Shown one piece after another: positions 28,670-35,893 of a DNA stretch of 64,000 nucleotides (positions are counted from its first letter, which is position 1; the number at the start of each line of letters is the position of its first letter). Under the pieces are notes generated by a model. The model was not told the DNA's origin and searched no databases. It worked only from the letters and a program-made list of their open reading frames with translations. Source of the DNA: an uncultured Holophagales bacterium (GTDB lineage Bacteria > Acidobacteriota > Thermoanaerobaculia > Multivoradales > UBA5704); NCBI GenBank assembly GCA_963842525.1, contig CAWJGT010000009.1, positions 1,888,001-1,952,000 of the forward strand, given 5' to 3'. The position numbers were made by a program, and so were the translations under genes.

Positions 28670-28862
28670 TCCAGAGGGGGGCAAGCCCCCCTCTGGACTC
28701 CCCCCGAAAAGAAGTCCAGAGTTTCAGAGACCAGAGAAATCAGAGGCCAGAGGAGAATGGGAGCACGACGACACGGAACCCAATGAAGTCGCCGCGGTTG
28801 ACCGGCTCGCCCCAGCGGCGGCACGCACAACGGGCGAGCCTGGAGTCGAAGAAGCAAGAGCC
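28670..28862 (-). repeat. Putative DGR variable repeat, IMH-like CTCTG(G/A) tract and hairpin, copy 1
   Basis: Near-identical to 32969-33160 except at NNC codons; hairpin tccagagggggg-caag-cccccctctgga at 28670-28697. Confidence 0.78.
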
Positions 28863-31502
28863 GCCGCGGACAACCCGGAGGGATTGCGAAGGTGCTTCGA
28901 GATCCTCACGGCCATCCGTGCTCACGTAGGGATACGCCTTATCGACGCTTCTCGTCCACTCCCAGACATTGCCGCTCATCTCTTCGCATCCGGAGGGGCT
29001 GGCTCCTCCAGGGAAACAACCGACGGCACTGACCTCTCCGACTCCGCTCTCACCAACGTTCGCCCGGTCCGCATCGAAGCCGTCACCCCAGGGGTACCTC
29101 CGCCCATCGGTCCCGCGGGCCGCCTTCTCCCACTCCGCTTCGGACGGCAGGGTGACCACCAGGCGTCCGCTCGCGAGACCTTCCCAGAGGCTCCCCGCGG
29201 CTCCGCTCGTTTTCCTCCTTGGGCCAGGCGCTCCGCCGCCTCGCCTTTCAGCTTCTCTCCCAACCAACGGCAGTAGGCCAGGGCCTCGAACCAGGTGACG
29301 AAGATCGCCGGATGGTTGGGGTGGCCTTCCAGAGCCCTGCGGTCCCCGAGCTTCCAGAGAGGTGTCCGCCACGAAGGTGGAGAGCTGCTGGACCGTCACC
29401 GGGTACCGCGCCATATAAAGGGCCGGCAGGACCACTTCATGCTGCGGTCGCTCGTCTCCATAGCTTTCAGGATCGTCCTTCGCGCTCCCCATCCGGAACG
29501 GCCCGGCGGGGACCGCGACGAAACCCAGGAGCGGATCGCACGGCAGGAACCAGCGGTCCGGGTCGAAACGCGGATCGCCCAGCTTCGCCAGGGTACGGCC
29601 GGCCAGGGCCCGCTCGGTGGCGGGAAACCGGCCGTCGCCGAGGAGGCGGACCAGCCAGCGTCGCAGCCGCTCCAGCTTGGGCCGGTTGGCAGGGCTGACC
29701 TGGGAAAGGTTCGCCGATTCGGCTACCGCCTGGCCGGCGAGCTGGGCTCCCCAGGCGTCGGCCAGGTCGTTCTCCGGCGCGTCCGGCTCCCGCCAGCAGA
29801 GGGCCTCGGCAAGCTGCCAGACGCTCGGCACCGCCCCCCGCGCCGCCTTGGCCCCGGCGAGCAGCACCACCTCCCGCCAGCGCGCCGGATCCTTGCGCGC
29901 GAGCTCCGCCACCCGGTCCGGCCACGTGCGCTCTCCAGTAAGATGGCAGGCCGCCAGGTACTCCTGGAACGTGCGGTGCGGGAACGTGTACACCCCCACC
30001 CCGCGAGGCTCCAGCAGGCCCGCCCGGTCCCGCAGGAATTCGACGAGGAGACCGGGCCTCGTGTCGGGATTCCGGCTCACCCGCAGCAGGCTTGCCACCA
30101 ATTCCTTCTCTTCAAGGTCGGCGGTGCCGGTGGTGTCGCCCTGGGCGCCGTGGCATTCGCAGGCCAGCTCTTCGAGCACGGCGCGGACCTTCTCCCGCCC
30201 CACGTTCAGGAACTCGCTCAGGCTCGGCTGCGGCAGCACCGGCTCGCCGCGGGCGTCGAACCGCACCCGCTGCTTCTCCCAGACGTCGAGCAGGAGGTCG
30301 ACGGCGTTCGCGTAAAGCTCCTCCCGCCGTTCCGGCAGGCTGCCCCCGCGCCACGCATGGAGGCTTGCCATCAGGGTCAACAGCAACGGCCGCCGGGCGA
30401 GGCCCAGCAGGCGGTCCCCGGTAAAGACCGCGCGTTCGAGCAGCACTGCGCGGCCCTGTGCATCTTCCTCCGGGAGCCGGCCGAGTGTGGCCATCTGGGC
30501 ATACCACCGCGAGATGAACCAATGGATCTGCCCGCGGCTGAACGGCGCCAGCTCTCCTTCCGCAAAGCCCGGCAGCTTCCACTCCTGGTTGCGGTAGGCG
30601 TAGGTGCGGCTGGTCAGCAGGACCCGGCACTTCCCCAGGCTCTGGCAGAAGCTCACCACCGCTTGGCGGATCTGCTGGCGGCGCGTCTCCGCCTCCGGTA
30701 CTTCGTCGAGCCCGTCGAACAGCACCAGGCCGCCCTGCGTGAGCAGCTCCTCCTTGAGGTGCGGCAGGTACTCGCCGAGCCCGCACGCCTGCAGGTCGCG
30801 TCCGAGGAAGGCCCAGAGGTGCTGCGCCGTGGCCTCCTTGCCACGCTCCGGCAGCCCTGAGGCCGCGAAATCCCGCAGCACGACCCGCACCGGCAGGAGC
30901 GCCTTATGCCGCCAGGGCTGGGGTTTCTTCTCCCCTTCTTCTTCCTCTCGCGGCAGAGGAGAGCGCAACACCTCCAGGTTCACATCCTTCCGGCCGAAGG
31001 CTTCCCCGGCCAGGCAGAGGGCGACGAAGCTCACGAAGGTGCTCTTGCCGCTTCCCGGGTCCCCTAACAGGACGAGGCGGGGATGCCGGTCGAGCAGCGC
31101 CAGGGCGGAGAGGGGGCGCGGCCGATCCTCAGGGATCCCGGCAGGCCGTCCCTTGGAAAGCTTCTCCTCCACGCTCGTGGTGAGCAAGGCGGTGTAGACG
31201 GCATCGAGCCGCAGCCGCGCCTCACGGTCGTTGGCCAGAGCCGGATCGACTCCCGAGAGGGCCAGGGCCTCGGTCTGGCAGACGAGACGATGCAAGTATG
31301 CCGAGCGGAGCGTGGCTGCGTCCGCCCCCGGACCGGGCCGGACATAGGTGGTGACAATGTCGCGCCCAGCCGCCTGCCCACCCGCCCCGGCTGCCACGCC
31401 GCCGGACTGGACGATGGCGCCCGAGCCCAGGAGCTTGGCCTCCAGGGCGGCCACCTGGGCACGAAGGCGTTCGAGCTCGCTCGCGGAGTCAGGAACGGTC
31501 AT
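28740..31502 (-). CDS. NACHT NTPase + C-terminal FGE-sulfatase (C-type lectin fold) NLR-like protein with N-terminal Gly-rich motif
   Basis: [29 protein letters not shown] and [12 protein letters not shown]; FGE motifs [34 protein letters not shown] and GFR. Two compensating indels at about 29350-29200. Confidence 0.93.
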
Positions 31503-33160: not shown

Positions 33161-35893
33161 ACCGCGCACAACCCGGAGGCTTTGCGAAGGTGCTTTGATA
33201 TCTTCTCGGCCGTCCGTTCTCACGTAGGGATAGGCTTTATCGACGCTCCGCGTCCACTCCCAAACATTGCCGCTCATCTCCTCGCATCCAAAGGGGCTGG
33301 CTCCTCCGGGAAAACACCCGACGGTGCTGAGCTCCGCCGACTCCGGTCTCACGCACGTTCGCCCGGTCCGCGTCGAAGCTGCCTTCCCACGGGTATTGCC
33401 TGCCATCGGTCCCTCGCGCCGCCTTCTCCCACTCCGCTTCGGAAGGCAGGCTGACGCTCCATCCGTCCGGCAGGCGGCCTCCCTGGCGCCAGCGGCCTTC
33501 CAGCCAGCAGCAGAAGGCCAGGGCCTCGGACCAGCTCACCAAGACCACTGGATGGTTGGCAGGGCCGCGCAGGCTGTCCGGGTCTTGCGGCGGTTTGCCG
33601 GTCTCCTTTACATACTCCCGGAACTGAGCCACCGTCACCGGATAGCGACCGATCCGGTATTCGTACGCCAGATCGCAGTCGTGCGCCGGCCTCTCATCAT
33701 CGAAGCCCTGCGGATCATCCTCCTCGCTCCCCATGCGGAACGGCCCGGCGGGTACGGTGCGGAGCTCCATGGCGTCCACGGTATTGACCTCGGGCCGGGG
33801 GTCTCCGACCGCGGCGAGGGCCTTGCCGGCGGCAGCCCGCCGCGCGGGCTCGACCCGGCCGGCGGCCTGCAGGGCGTCGAGGAGGGCGGCGACGACCTTC
33901 TTCCGGCAGGCAGCCGACACGGCGCCGGGGCCGGCATCCGCCGCGGCCTGTCCCATCCAGACCGCGGCCTCGCCCGGTGGACCCGGCGCCCGGCCCAGCG
34001 GGCCCTCGACGACCTCGCTCGCCGCCTGCTCCCACTGGTCGATGATCGCCAGGTGCCCGACGGTGAGGACGACCACCTCGTGCCACGGGGCCTCGCCCAC
34101 GTGCGGCGCCAGGGCCTCGATCAGGGCGGCGGTCCCCTCCCGGGCCTTGCGCGCCAGGGCCACCGCCGCCAGGTACTCCTGGAAGGTCAGGTGGATGAAG
34201 CCGTAGTGGTGCTCGCCGCGGCTCAGGAGGAGCGACGAGTAATCCCGGACGTCTTTCAGGAAGCCTTCGGCGGCGCGGGCCGGGTCCGCGTGCCCGCGGC
34301 CGGCGCAGAGGGACTCCAGCTTGCGCAGCAACTCACCCTCCTTGACCAAGCCGACGCCGGGCGAGACTTCGTGCATCCAGAGGGCGAGGGGCTCCAGGAC
34401 CTTCATGGTCTCGACCAGGTCCACCTCCCGGCCCGACCGGCCCGCCAGGCTGCGGGCCAGGTTCCAGTGCTTGAGGAGCGTCTCGACGTAGTTCTTGTAG
34501 AGCTCCACCCGGCGGTCCGGAAGGGCGATTCCGCCGCGCTTCATCAGCGCCAGGATGGTGAGGAGCAGCGGGTTCGCGGCCAGCGACCGCACTCCGGGGT
34601 TGACGCGGACCGCCGCCAGGAGCTCCCCCGCGCTCCTGCTCGGCCTGGGCGCGGGCCACGTCGGTTGCGCCGCTCACGGCCTTTTCGATGGACGCCGTCC
34701 ACTTTCCGAGGAAGGCCTCGATCTCCCCGTCGTCGAAATCCACCAGGGTGGCTTCCGCCAGGCCCTCCGCGGCCAGCCGGACCTCGCGGTAGCCCACGAT
34801 CCGGCTGGTCAGGACGAAGCGGTTGCCTCCCTTGCCGGCCTTGCGGTGCCGGGAGTAGAAATCCCGCACCCGGTCGACCACAAGATGGCGGCGCCCCGCG
34901 TCTCGCACCTCGTCGAGGCCGTCCAGGAGAAGGAGGGCGCTCCCTTCCCGGAGGGCCTCGCTCGAGCAGGGCTCCGAGAGGGACCTGGATCTTCCGCTCG
35001 TCCTCGTAATAGCGGGCGATGAAGGCGTCGAGAGAGACGTCCCTGTCGGCAAGGGCGTTGGCATAGGCGGCCAGGGGGAGGAGGATGGGCAGCCTCCCAC
35101 CCAATCCGAGGGTCTCTCCCTGGCCGGAGGCGAGGGCCAGAGCCAGAACCTTGAGGAAGGTGGTCTTGCCCGCACCGGGGTCCCCGAGGAGGACCAGGCC
35201 GTCGTGCTTCTGAAGGAGATCCAGAACCGGCACGGGCGCGGACAGGCGCTCTCCCATGTCCGCTCCCTCTTCCGTGCCGGGCGGCCGGCCGGCCACGCGG
35301 GGCTGGCGCGCCCAGGTCTCTCCTTCCGGCGTGTGCAGGCGGGCTTTGAGAGGGACGTACATCTCCAGGAGCGGCAGCTTGAGGGCGACGCGGTCCGAGA
35401 TGCCCATGCCCCGGAGGTCGAGGTACTGGTAGGCAGCCACCAGAAATTGGAGGTAGGCGCGGGCGGCCTCCTCCAGATCCGGAGCCGGCGGCCCCAACCC
35501 GAGACCGCGCAGGAAGTCCCTGGCATCGGGGGCCTCGACATTGACCTCCAGGCGCTCGATCGCGTTGACGTTTCCATGGACGTCGCCGCCCACCGCCGCC
35601 TGCCCGGAGGCGACGCCTCCATCCACTGCGACCGAGGAGCGGCCGCGAGCTGTCAAGGAGCGGCGCGCCGGGAACTCGGCTGCCTGAGGTTTGCGGCGGA
35701 GCCAGAAGCGGACCACAGCCACCACCGCAGCACCGAGCCAGAGGATGATCTGCACCAGTCCGGCCAGCCCCTCGATCCGCGCCGAGTGGGTGCCGGCCAG
35801 ATCCAGCAGGCGCGGCCACCACCACGGGGCCAGCCAACCCAGGAGGGCCAGGGCCAGCACCAGCGCGCCGGGGAGGAGCCACTTTTTCAGCAT
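33038..35893 (-). CDS. 2TM + Gly-rich motif + NACHT + FGE-sulfatase NLR-like protein (frameshifts near 34965, 34630 and 33335)
   Basis: Two N-terminal hydrophobic helices; [31 protein letters not shown] and [12 protein letters not shown]; FGE motifs through to GFRVVVLPF. Confidence 0.9.

Follow-up and report, generated by a model that had tools for sequence, protein, structure and literature searches.

We have analyzed a window of 64,000 nucleotides from the genome of an uncultured Holophagales bacterium (contig C9, positions 1888001-1952000; the genome has 9.95 Mb in 34 contigs, is 96.4% complete and has about 68% GC). Our subject is a gene cluster on the minus strand in which a small helical protein of 161 amino acids, called here Bell-like, lies beside two NOD-like receptor (NLR) genes, NLR1 and NLR2, that encode a NACHT NTPase followed by an FGE-sulfatase domain. 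The locus is best explained, with a probability of about 0.6, as one copy of a cell-death or immunity module that is conserved across phyla and has been orphaned in this genome. Sequence comparison supports an effector and a receptor coupled by a shared short beta-prone motif in the manner of the Bell/BASS pairs, and indicates that the 3' ends of both NLR genes are genuine variable repeats (VRs) of the type made by diversity-generating retroelements (DGRs). The window copy is most likely no longer diversifying, since the assembly holds no cognate template repeat (TR), reverse transcriptase (RT) or Avd for it, a transposase gene has inserted between its genes and both NLR frames are damaged. 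Possibly it is no longer functional either.

The module would work as follows. The receptor would be a NACHT NTPase with a C-terminal FGE/C-type-lectin-fold sensor, the last ~130 nt of which would be rewritten by a DGR in this gene family. Binding of a ligand would make the NACHT domains oligomerise and would gather their N-terminal Gly-rich motifs, which would in turn serve as templates for the identical C-terminal motif of the Bell-like protein; the hydrophobic first helix of the latter would be released and would attack the membrane. Templating of an amyloid or beta-solenoid, pore formation and a role in immunity or kin recognition are all proposed by analogy with Bell/BASS, Bab/Agp and HET-S/NWD2. 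A broader statement, that hypermutated lectin-fold NACHT receptors signal through a new Gly-rich beta-solenoid or amyloid motif to Bell-type or to caspase, CHAT, phosphoesterase or two-transmembrane (2TM) effectors, in a module not yet described as such whose window copy has lost its diversifier, is offered tentatively, and we would sooner doubt it than assert it.

A helical protein and NACHT-FGE receptors with a common motif

The genes and domains that matter here are the following.

28740..31502, minus strand: NLR1, a motif-NACHT-FGE-sulfatase gene, open reading frame (ORF) of 920 amino acids without interruption.
28767..29522, minus strand: FGE-sulfatase or C-type-lectin-fold sensor domain of NLR1, residues 661-912 (Pfam PF03781, E 5.3e-39).
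30498..31076, minus strand: NACHT NTPase domain of NLR1, residues 143-335 (Pfam PF05729, E 2.7e-9, 37.5 bits for a cut-off of 26.7).
31356..31430, minus strand: copy of the motif on the NLR side, residues 25-49 of NLR1 (alignment; invariant sites in 12 NLR N-termini).
31489..31974, minus strand: Bell-like gene, an ORF of 161 amino acids whose N-terminal domain is helical and which has a C-terminal Gly-rich motif.
31537..31641, minus strand: Gly-rich beta motif on the effector side, residues 112-146 (four predicted strands; 12 invariant columns in 30 homologs).
31651..31974, minus strand: helical domain, residues 1-108, with a hydrophobic N-terminal helix (AlphaFold2 helices in residues 3-107; hydropathy peak at residues 1-24).
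33038..35893, minus strand: NLR2, a gene of 2TM-motif-NACHT-FGE layout interrupted by three insertions of one base each (compared with the intact ortholog L023:7071-9920 by tblastn and DNA alignment; the fragments have Pfam matches).
35558..35638, minus strand: degenerate Gly-rich motif of NLR2 (translation; compared only by eye with the family motif, whose second half it resembles).
35696..35884, minus strand: two predicted transmembrane helices at the N-terminus of NLR2, about residues 4-24 and 40-66 (Kyte-Doolittle windows above 1.6; kept in the L023 ortholog).

Labels such as L023 denote homologous loci from a scan of one genome per species, which returned 32 loci. They belong to Thermoanaerobaculia, Competibacteraceae, Desulfobulbaceae/Electrothrix, Anaerolineae and other Chloroflexota, Entotheonella and Burkholderiales.

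A first-pass annotation made from the letters alone had described two co-oriented NACHT-FGE genes and a 161-residue gene overlapping the start of one. The genes lie where it had placed them, on the minus strand, both peptides that it quoted are found in the translations, and the small gene shares 14 nt with NLR1 on the same strand. NLR2 starts at 35893, exactly where that annotation had ended the module. Both NACHT-FGE genes are present, but NLR2 is not a single ORF, as tblastn with the L023 ortholog moves through frames -1, -2, -3 and -1. The Walker A motifs are visible in the translations (GDPGSGKST and GDPGAGKTT), and NLR1 has the layout that characterizes bacterial NACHT proteins, with the P-loop module placed between an N-terminal adaptor and a C-terminal sensor; it matched no PADLOC family. 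Orthologs of NLR1 with about 80% amino-acid identity were found in L021, L022 and L023, and in all three the 14-nt overlap with the Bell-like gene recurs. As for NLR2, the gene at L025:6778-9447 carries an N-terminus with the NLR1-type motif on a body 84% identical to NLR2 in DNA, which points to domain shuffling between species; unlike the L025 gene, NLR2 of the window and of L023 begins with two transmembrane helices.

The search with the 161-residue protein gave 196 homologs at E<=0.001 among 2537 candidates; close ones come from MAGs that carry the label Thermoanaerobaculia (Acidobacteriota). Across 30 of them the N-terminal domain drops to 39% identity, and 12 columns of the tail stay invariant (A114, G120-G125, G127, V129, G132, G135 and G139, with the core GAIAQG). 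About 28 residues long, the motif is predicted to form about four short strands and follows a heptad-like pattern, G-x-hydrophobic-A-x-G-x. The likeness noticed in the first pass between this tail and the NLR N-terminus is confirmed, the window pair aligning over 30 residues, with G26, G28, A29, V36, A37, A38, G39 and G42 invariant in 12 NLR N-termini. It is also conserved in homologous pairs: all 14 Bell/NLR pairs compared, from at least four phyla, have it, among them another pair from this genome, on contig C28. This second pair (about 6200-9480 of C28) is apparently intact, its Bell-like protein being 56% and its NACHT region 66% identical to the window copies. The NLR1-type copy of the motif in Thermoanaerobaculia is a diverged variant with a one-residue deletion.

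The pairing recurs as gene order too. Among the 30 loci in which a pattern search placed the motif, 13 have a large ORF that begins inside the small gene or directly behind it and bears the motif near its N-terminus (in L025 such an ORF lies upstream). Ten of these ORFs were scanned: the nine complete ones all have NACHT plus FGE-sulfatase, and the tenth is cut by a contig end. Elsewhere the same motif was found on two caspase proteins (one of them also with EAD7), on a calcineurin-like phosphoesterase, on a CyanoTRADDas 2TM domain and, with a match just below the cut-off, on a CHAT-like domain; nine such other proteins were scanned and two of them matched no family. This range of partners suggests that the motif behaves as a signalling adaptor of the Bell/BASS kind. 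Together the conserved pairing, the overlapping genes, the presence of the motif on other death effectors and the fusion of the helical domain to NLRs (next section) argue for a Bell/BASS-style coupling in this family.

Several results weigh against such a coupling, or at least against its amyloid version. The first concerns pair-specific co-variation of the two motifs, an expectation that failed: only in 2 of the 14 pairs was the cognate NLR the best partner, and the pair of the window reached a score of 67, compared with 127 for a foreign NLR. Secondly, the motif is rich in Gly, Ala and Val and has a single conserved Q, without the N/Q richness described for BASS. Thirdly, 23 of the 30 family members give a sub-threshold match to the YadA_head repeat, a left-handed beta-roll, so that a defined non-amyloid oligomer is possible; the weak likeness fits a beta-solenoid-like stack equally well. 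Besides, the label Bell-like follows architecture and published descriptions and is to be taken as an analogy.

A rival reading takes the motif for a conventional homotypic adaptor, like the effector-associated domains (EADs) of Kaur et al., that builds a beta-roll hetero-oligomer of defined size and recruits its effector stoichiometrically without templating. The YadA_head matches and the composition just mentioned speak for it, as does the combination of the motif with many effector types, once alongside EAD7, as EADs are combined. However, no Pfam EAD model matches the motif (EAD1-11 in the window proteins and in the 30 family members; in L043 EAD7 occupies residues 385-448, apart from the motif at about 304). 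Its length and its four predicted strands split by glycines reproduce the layout reported for BASS11 (10.1101/2024.11.07.622273), and its placement at the C-terminus of the effector and the N-terminus of the NLR, with overlapping genes, fits amyloid-signalling pairs. We regard the beta-roll adaptor as rather unlikely and keep the templated coupling as the preferred reading. A complex prediction for the NLR1 N-terminus (75 amino acids) with the Bell tail (residues 100-161) scored 0.01 and 0.02, which gives no answer, and it is not used as evidence.

The helical protein and its relatives

The AlphaFold2 model of the 161-residue protein, built on the 30-sequence alignment, predicts seven helices in residues 3-107 followed by four short strands in residues 113-139 (mean pLDDT 72.8, pTM 0.56). 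As modelled, the protein is consistent with the all-alpha N-terminal domain of about 100 amino acids by which Bell/BASS effectors are described. At the N-terminus of the family M1 and D2 do not vary, relatives often begin with MDP, and the first helix is hydrophobic.

A much larger set is recovered with a profile restricted to the helical domain: 3008 cluster representatives at E<=0.001, of which 981 reach E<=1e-10. At least three different types of C-terminal tail were found among 20 members read, one of them with an IQ[IV]G core that resembles the G-phi-Q-phi-G signature in the published description of RHIM/BASS3. Five long members were scanned: three are NACHT-FGE proteins (P0178, P0219 and P0265), one an NB-ARC-TPR protein (P0191) and one a STAND NTPase fragment. 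In L033 and L034 the helical domain is fused straight to motif-NACHT-FGE.

The family and structure searches may also speak against the Bell-like assignment. None of the families in Pfam, PADLOC or NCBIfam covers the small protein. Foldseek with the model against the PDB gave no match at E<=0.001 (the best was 0.69), and VIA-align against 48,161 chains reached at best Z 5.2 with unrelated helical proteins, without any HeLo, MLKL or Bab-like entry among the best 50 matches. Both searches for Bell or HeLo likeness thus gave generic helical-bundle matches only; an absent fold match is not evidence for a different fold. An atlas look-up with residues 1-110 provides leads only: the nearest clusters are proteins of 95-108 amino acids from Actinomycetota and Cyanobacteriota (scores 0.92-0.93), one of which has HetE-N on 26% of its members. 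The precomputed HetE-N label (PF20701) on 4 of the 120 listed relatives was not reproduced by hmmscan, and a literature search for HetE-N or PF20701 returned unrelated papers only.

Variable repeats at the 3' ends of the receptor genes

The relevant elements are these.

28671..28753, minus strand: target-site flank of NLR1, a CTCTG-repeat at 28714-28753 and an 11-bp GC hairpin with a 4-nt loop at 28671-28696 (fold z-score -2.4).
28748..28879, minus strand: variable-repeat-like core at the 3' end of NLR1 (nhmmer and alignment; variable sites coincide with adenines of the L033 template repeat).
32970..33051, minus strand: target-site flank of NLR2, a CTCTG-repeat at 33012-33051 and a GC hairpin at 32970-32993 (z-score -2.65).
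33046..33177, minus strand: variable-repeat-like core at the 3' end of NLR2 (nhmmer and alignment; adenine test).

The 3' ends of NLR1 and NLR2 are 87-89% identical over about 480 nt, including some 90 nt past the stop codon. When a paralog on contig C4 is added, the last ~170 nt of the three genes are 83-89% identical, and the adjoining upstream sequence has diverged much further (about 30-60% in each 30-nt bin). The differences among the 3' ends fall in positions 1 and 2 of NNC codons. We carried out the adenine test by proxy, aligning the VRs of the window to the homologous TRs of L033 and L034 and counting against the L033 template. The columns that vary among NLR1, NLR2 and the C4 paralog comprise 18 of the 28 template adenines and 5 of the 100 other positions (Fisher p=7e-11, odds ratio 34). 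Among the orthologs NLR1, L021 and L023, 22 of 28 template-adenine columns vary compared with 20 of 100 others.

The flanks are informative too. The CTCTG-repeat and the hairpin are kept between NLR1, NLR2 and the C4 paralog, and the CCCATTC..CTCTG-repeat flank beyond the VR in both window genes, an IMH-like end with a downstream element, is shared with the true VRs of L033 and L034 and absent from their TRs. CTCTG-repeats just past the stop of DGR targets are also seen at L033:~13270-13330 and L034:~9810-9860. The element, found in Thermoanaerobaculia and Competibacter, is a candidate target-recognition element of this DGR lineage. Together with the cassettes found beside relatives (below), the adenine footprint and the shared flank show that adenine-directed mutagenesis shaped NLR1 and NLR2, and that one template served three targets on two contigs. 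The variable-repeat-like ends that had been noticed on both NLRs therefore stand, as a DGR-type adenine-site footprint at the end of the FGE-fold domain.

Ordinary divergence of paralogs, gene conversion or positive selection, with no retroelement involved, could be put forward for the similar ends and their variable codons. TR and RT are absent at the locus, and gene conversion could produce a sharp boundary of identity. Yet such processes would have to hit the adenines of an independent homologous template, at the odds ratio given above, as well as positions 1 and 2 of NNC codons, and to do so next to a flank common to proven VRs. The adenine result effectively refutes this explanation, which we consider highly improbable.

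DGR machinery in relatives and in this genome

In the L033 locus (Thermoanaerobaculia) the cassette is complete, with the order all-in-one NLR, Avd, TR, RT, Bell-like gene and NLR. Its Avd matches NCBIfam NF033474 above the cut-off, the TR lies at 8582-8702 and the RT has 383 amino acids; the mismatches of its two VRs fall on template adenines in 18 of 18 and 17 of 17 cases. The adenine bias is also present in L034 (Competibacter), L039, L045, L048 and L030, and a DGR-type RT lies at <=10 kb in 7 of the 32 homologous loci.

The window itself has no Avd, no RT (no RVT_1 match) and no template-like repeat; the absence of the last two had escaped the first pass. BLAST and nhmmer searches for a cognate TR in the whole assembly returned eight VR-like gene ends and no TR, and the sequences downstream of the TRs of L033, L034, L045 and L048, used as queries, gave only 18-nt chance matches. 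Likewise, the genomes of five close relatives hold VR-like copies only and no RT, and the VR region had no match in the phage collection. Further NACHT-FGE paralogs with VR-like ends are found in this genome on contigs C4, C14 (two ends facing each other), C23 and C34.

The sole DGR-type RT of the genome lies at C3:960931-961641; it has an IGAYTSQ motif and stops early, the match continuing in another frame. Beside it are an Avd-like ORF (960266-960577), a TR (960646-960790) and a VR (959151-959295) with 15 of 16 mismatches at template adenines. The C3 TR has no similarity to the VRs of the window. The target of this C3 DGR (956050-961700) resembles a TIR-like-NACHT-FGE gene split over three frames, the TIR having been recognized by eye only.

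The first-pass claim that the sensor domains are DGR-diversified is thus borne out by the adenine footprint, the VR flanks and the avd-TR-RT cassettes beside the modules of relatives, but the window has none of the machinery and the assembly no cognate TR. Could the DGR still be active in trans, with TR, Avd and RT in the unassembled ~4%, on an unbinned mobile element, or collapsed in assembly? The near-identity of NLR1, NLR2 and the C4 paralog at non-adenine VR positions, compared with their divergence upstream, would indicate that a single template rewrote targets on two contigs fairly recently. The genome is incomplete, and both trans-acting DGRs and degenerate loci are reported in PMC10907252. 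Against this we have the negative TR searches, the unrelated TR of the only DGR-type RT and Avd, the RT-less genomes of the five relatives, and several third-codon, non-adenine positions at which NLR1 differs from NLR2 and the C4 paralog. Activity in trans is in our view unlikely, and loss of the diversifier remains the reading that we prefer.

The spacer between NLR2 and the Bell-like gene holds a gene missed in the first pass.

32311..32841, plus strand: gene for a REP-associated tyrosine transposase, RAYT (Pfam Y1_Tnp, E 0.0015; NCBIfam NF047646 at E 6e-17, under the cut-off).

It is bracketed by inverted hairpins of the repetitive extragenic palindrome (REP) type at 32030-32069, 32218-32261 and 32850-32891. 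The genome has a single copy of the RAYT gene and 11+11 occurrences of the REP core. The ~1.06-kb RAYT spacer is absent from the orthologous L023 locus, and since the gap between NLR2 and the Bell-like gene is there only ~80 nt, this clade never had a DGR cassette at this spot and the RAYT gene is a later insertion.

Damage to the receptor reading frames

Relative to L023, where the ortholog is intact, NLR2 contains one extra base near each of 34958, 34629 and 33336. NLR1 has one extra base near 29356 and two near 29193, as seen in both DNA and protein alignments with L021, L022 and L023, and its ORF stays open. The first pass had noticed none of these insertions.

29193..29356, minus strand: out-of-frame stretch of NLR1, about 54 codons, which replaces the NHP..W..A.AYC.WL core of the FGE fold (alignments).

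Consistently, the matches of several FGE-family NCBIfam models to NLR1 begin only at residue 783-785.

All these events could be artefacts of long-read metagenome assembly, both NLRs being intact in the living organism. Other genes of the window, the HlyD-like and the nSTAND1-RHS gene (see next section), are also split, as are the C3 DGR target, the C3 RT and 2 of the 11 long housekeeping or transport genes that we sampled as background; both are found among six RND pump genes that are clearly full-length. G runs are the site of two of the five insertions. The frameshifts may be consensus errors, a point against the preferred explanation. On the other hand, rpoB and four genes of aminoacyl-tRNA-synthetase type are whole, and the NLRs have five events in 5.6 kb compared with about two in ~37 kb of sampled long genes, i.e. 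about 10 times the background. All five events are insertions. We also looked at related metagenome contigs, from four runs of one study that share 5-7% of sampled words with the window; no RNA dataset is listed as sharing them. They lack the extra bases at 29190/29193, 34629 and 34958, but they are mostly 88-95% alike and thus represent relatives and not the same strain; being 5-10% diverged, they do not settle whether the insertions are real.

On these counts, real decay is somewhat more likely than assembly error, the latter being a serious possibility that falls short of an even chance. The missing diversifier together with the damage to both NLR frames suggests an orphaned and probably decaying copy, unless the indels are assembly errors. 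If the decay is real, the window records how such a module falls apart, the diversifier lost, a RAYT gene inserted and the sensors frameshifted, with the target-site elements and the adenine footprint still readable.

Other features of the window

At 52228-57232 on the plus strand, a large nSTAND1 NTPase gene with RHS repeats has an apparent frameshift near 53385, as the frame that matches positions 1-140 of the model differs from the one that matches 144-376. The plus-strand gene at 41280-42455 encodes a TIR_2 domain in a pentapeptide-repeat protein, with weak ThsB/SAVED-TIR matches in PADLOC. The presence of this gene, the NLRs and the nSTAND1 gene gives the stretch the character of a defence island. 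On the minus strand, 24846-28303 holds a MacB-like ABC transporter, whose ABC domain matches positions 1-80 of a 137-position model only, and an HlyD-like adaptor, split over at least two frames (26880-27503 and 27509-28303).

Several repeats were also found. A palindromic element of 157 nt at 22348-22504 and 39648-39804 (96% identical) bracketed 22.3-39.8 kb and was considered as a pair of island boundaries; this was ruled out, as the element has at least 500 BLAST matches genome-wide and is an abundant repeat similar to REP or to miniature inverted-repeat transposable elements. A second palindromic family (20345-20476 and 24683-24828) has 82 matches. At 39808-39988 a 54-nt unit is present three times in tandem at a spacing of 63-64 nt, the second and third copies being 93% and 63% identical to the first.

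Comparison with known systems

The closest eukaryotic parallel to the proposed mechanism is the fungal HET-S/NWD2 pair of Podospora, where a motif at the N-terminus of an NLR acts as template for the one at the C-terminus of a helical, pore-forming effector whose gene is adjacent. There the sensor consists of WD repeats that are diversified by repeat shuffling and not by a retroelement, and the effector domain is HeLo.

Among bacteria, the Bell/BASS pairs (10.1101/2020.01.06.895854) are described as a helical protein of ~100 amino acids with a C-terminal beta-prone motif of ~25 amino acids that is also present at the N-terminus of an adjacent NLR, encoded by collinear and often overlapping genes and sometimes as all-in-one fusions, as found here. 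Reuse of the motif on CHAT, EAD7 and NACHT proteins appears in the Bell/BASS and the Bab/Agp descriptions alike (10.1101/2020.01.06.895854, 10.1101/2024.11.07.622273). The differences lie in the sensors, which in the Bell/BASS report are NB-ARC or NACHT NLRs with TPR or WD repeats, FGE/CLec sensors and DGRs being unmentioned in its text, and in the phyla, there mainly Actinobacteria and Cyanobacteria, here Acidobacteriota (Thermoanaerobaculia), Competibacteraceae, Desulfobulbaceae and Chloroflexota. The motifs of that report are N/Q/G-rich and ours is G/A/V-rich; the comparison was made by description, and identity with one of BASS1-10 is possible. The strings GAIAQG and GSGAIAQ were not found in the literature text searched, and the Gly-rich motif may be an unnamed family of BASS type, again judged by description.

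The antiphage Bab/Agp system with BASS11 (10.1101/2024.11.07.622273) resembles ours in having a small helical death effector, whose conserved hydrophobic N-terminal helix may have its counterpart here, and a C-terminal four-strand motif with glycine breakers that is common to the neighbouring sensor protein. As described there, however, the sensor is TPR-GreA/B-C-PIN and not NACHT-FGE, no DGR is involved, and Bab has 109 amino acids and a 'MEPIS'-type N-terminus, compared with 161 amino acids and MDL/MDP in our family.

The sensor side has its own precedents. PMC8195603 describes STAND-FGS systems that have N-terminal EADs and DGRs associated with them, and PMC10907252 DGR-diversified NACHT/nSTAND-CLec sensors, degenerate and trans-served loci included; NACHT proteins with FGS 'antigen receptor-type' C-termini have been catalogued as well (10.1101/2022.07.19.500537, PMC13581612). 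The STAND NTPase-FGS/DGR systems of the first two reports share with ours the NACHT or nSTAND module followed by an FGS/CLec domain at the C-terminus, with a VR that an adjoining or distant DGR diversifies, the presence of two targets per locus, and an N-terminal adaptor that recruits a separately encoded effector. They differ in the adaptors, EAD1, 2, 7, 8 or bDLD3, and in the effectors, TIR, peptidases and similar. In the literature searched we found no published description of a Bell-type effector coupled by a Gly-rich amyloid-like motif to a DGR-diversified sensor. Within that literature only PMC8195603 and PMC10907252 mention both amyloid signalling and DGRs, and in the accessible text of PMC10907252 the amyloid term occurs in a reference only.

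Until now, amyloid-type signalling from NLRs to Bell-like death effectors has been reported apart from the DGR-hypermutated NACHT-lectin 'antigen sensors' of multicellular bacteria; the joint module occurs in Thermoanaerobaculia, Competibacteraceae, relatives of cable bacteria and Chloroflexota. If our interpretation is right, it would amount to an adaptive-like, diversifiable receptor wired to cell death by prion-like templating. The first-pass annotation had proposed such a receptor for this very locus; the outline fits the gene family and is overstated for the window copy, where the diversifier is absent and both sensors are damaged. With about 160 amino acids plus one NLR, the pair offers a small test system to ask if a hypervariable receptor can trigger cell death by templated folding. 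The parts are known, and the module joins two principles that have each been described, amyloid-type NLR/Bell signalling and DGR-diversified NACHT-lectin sensors.

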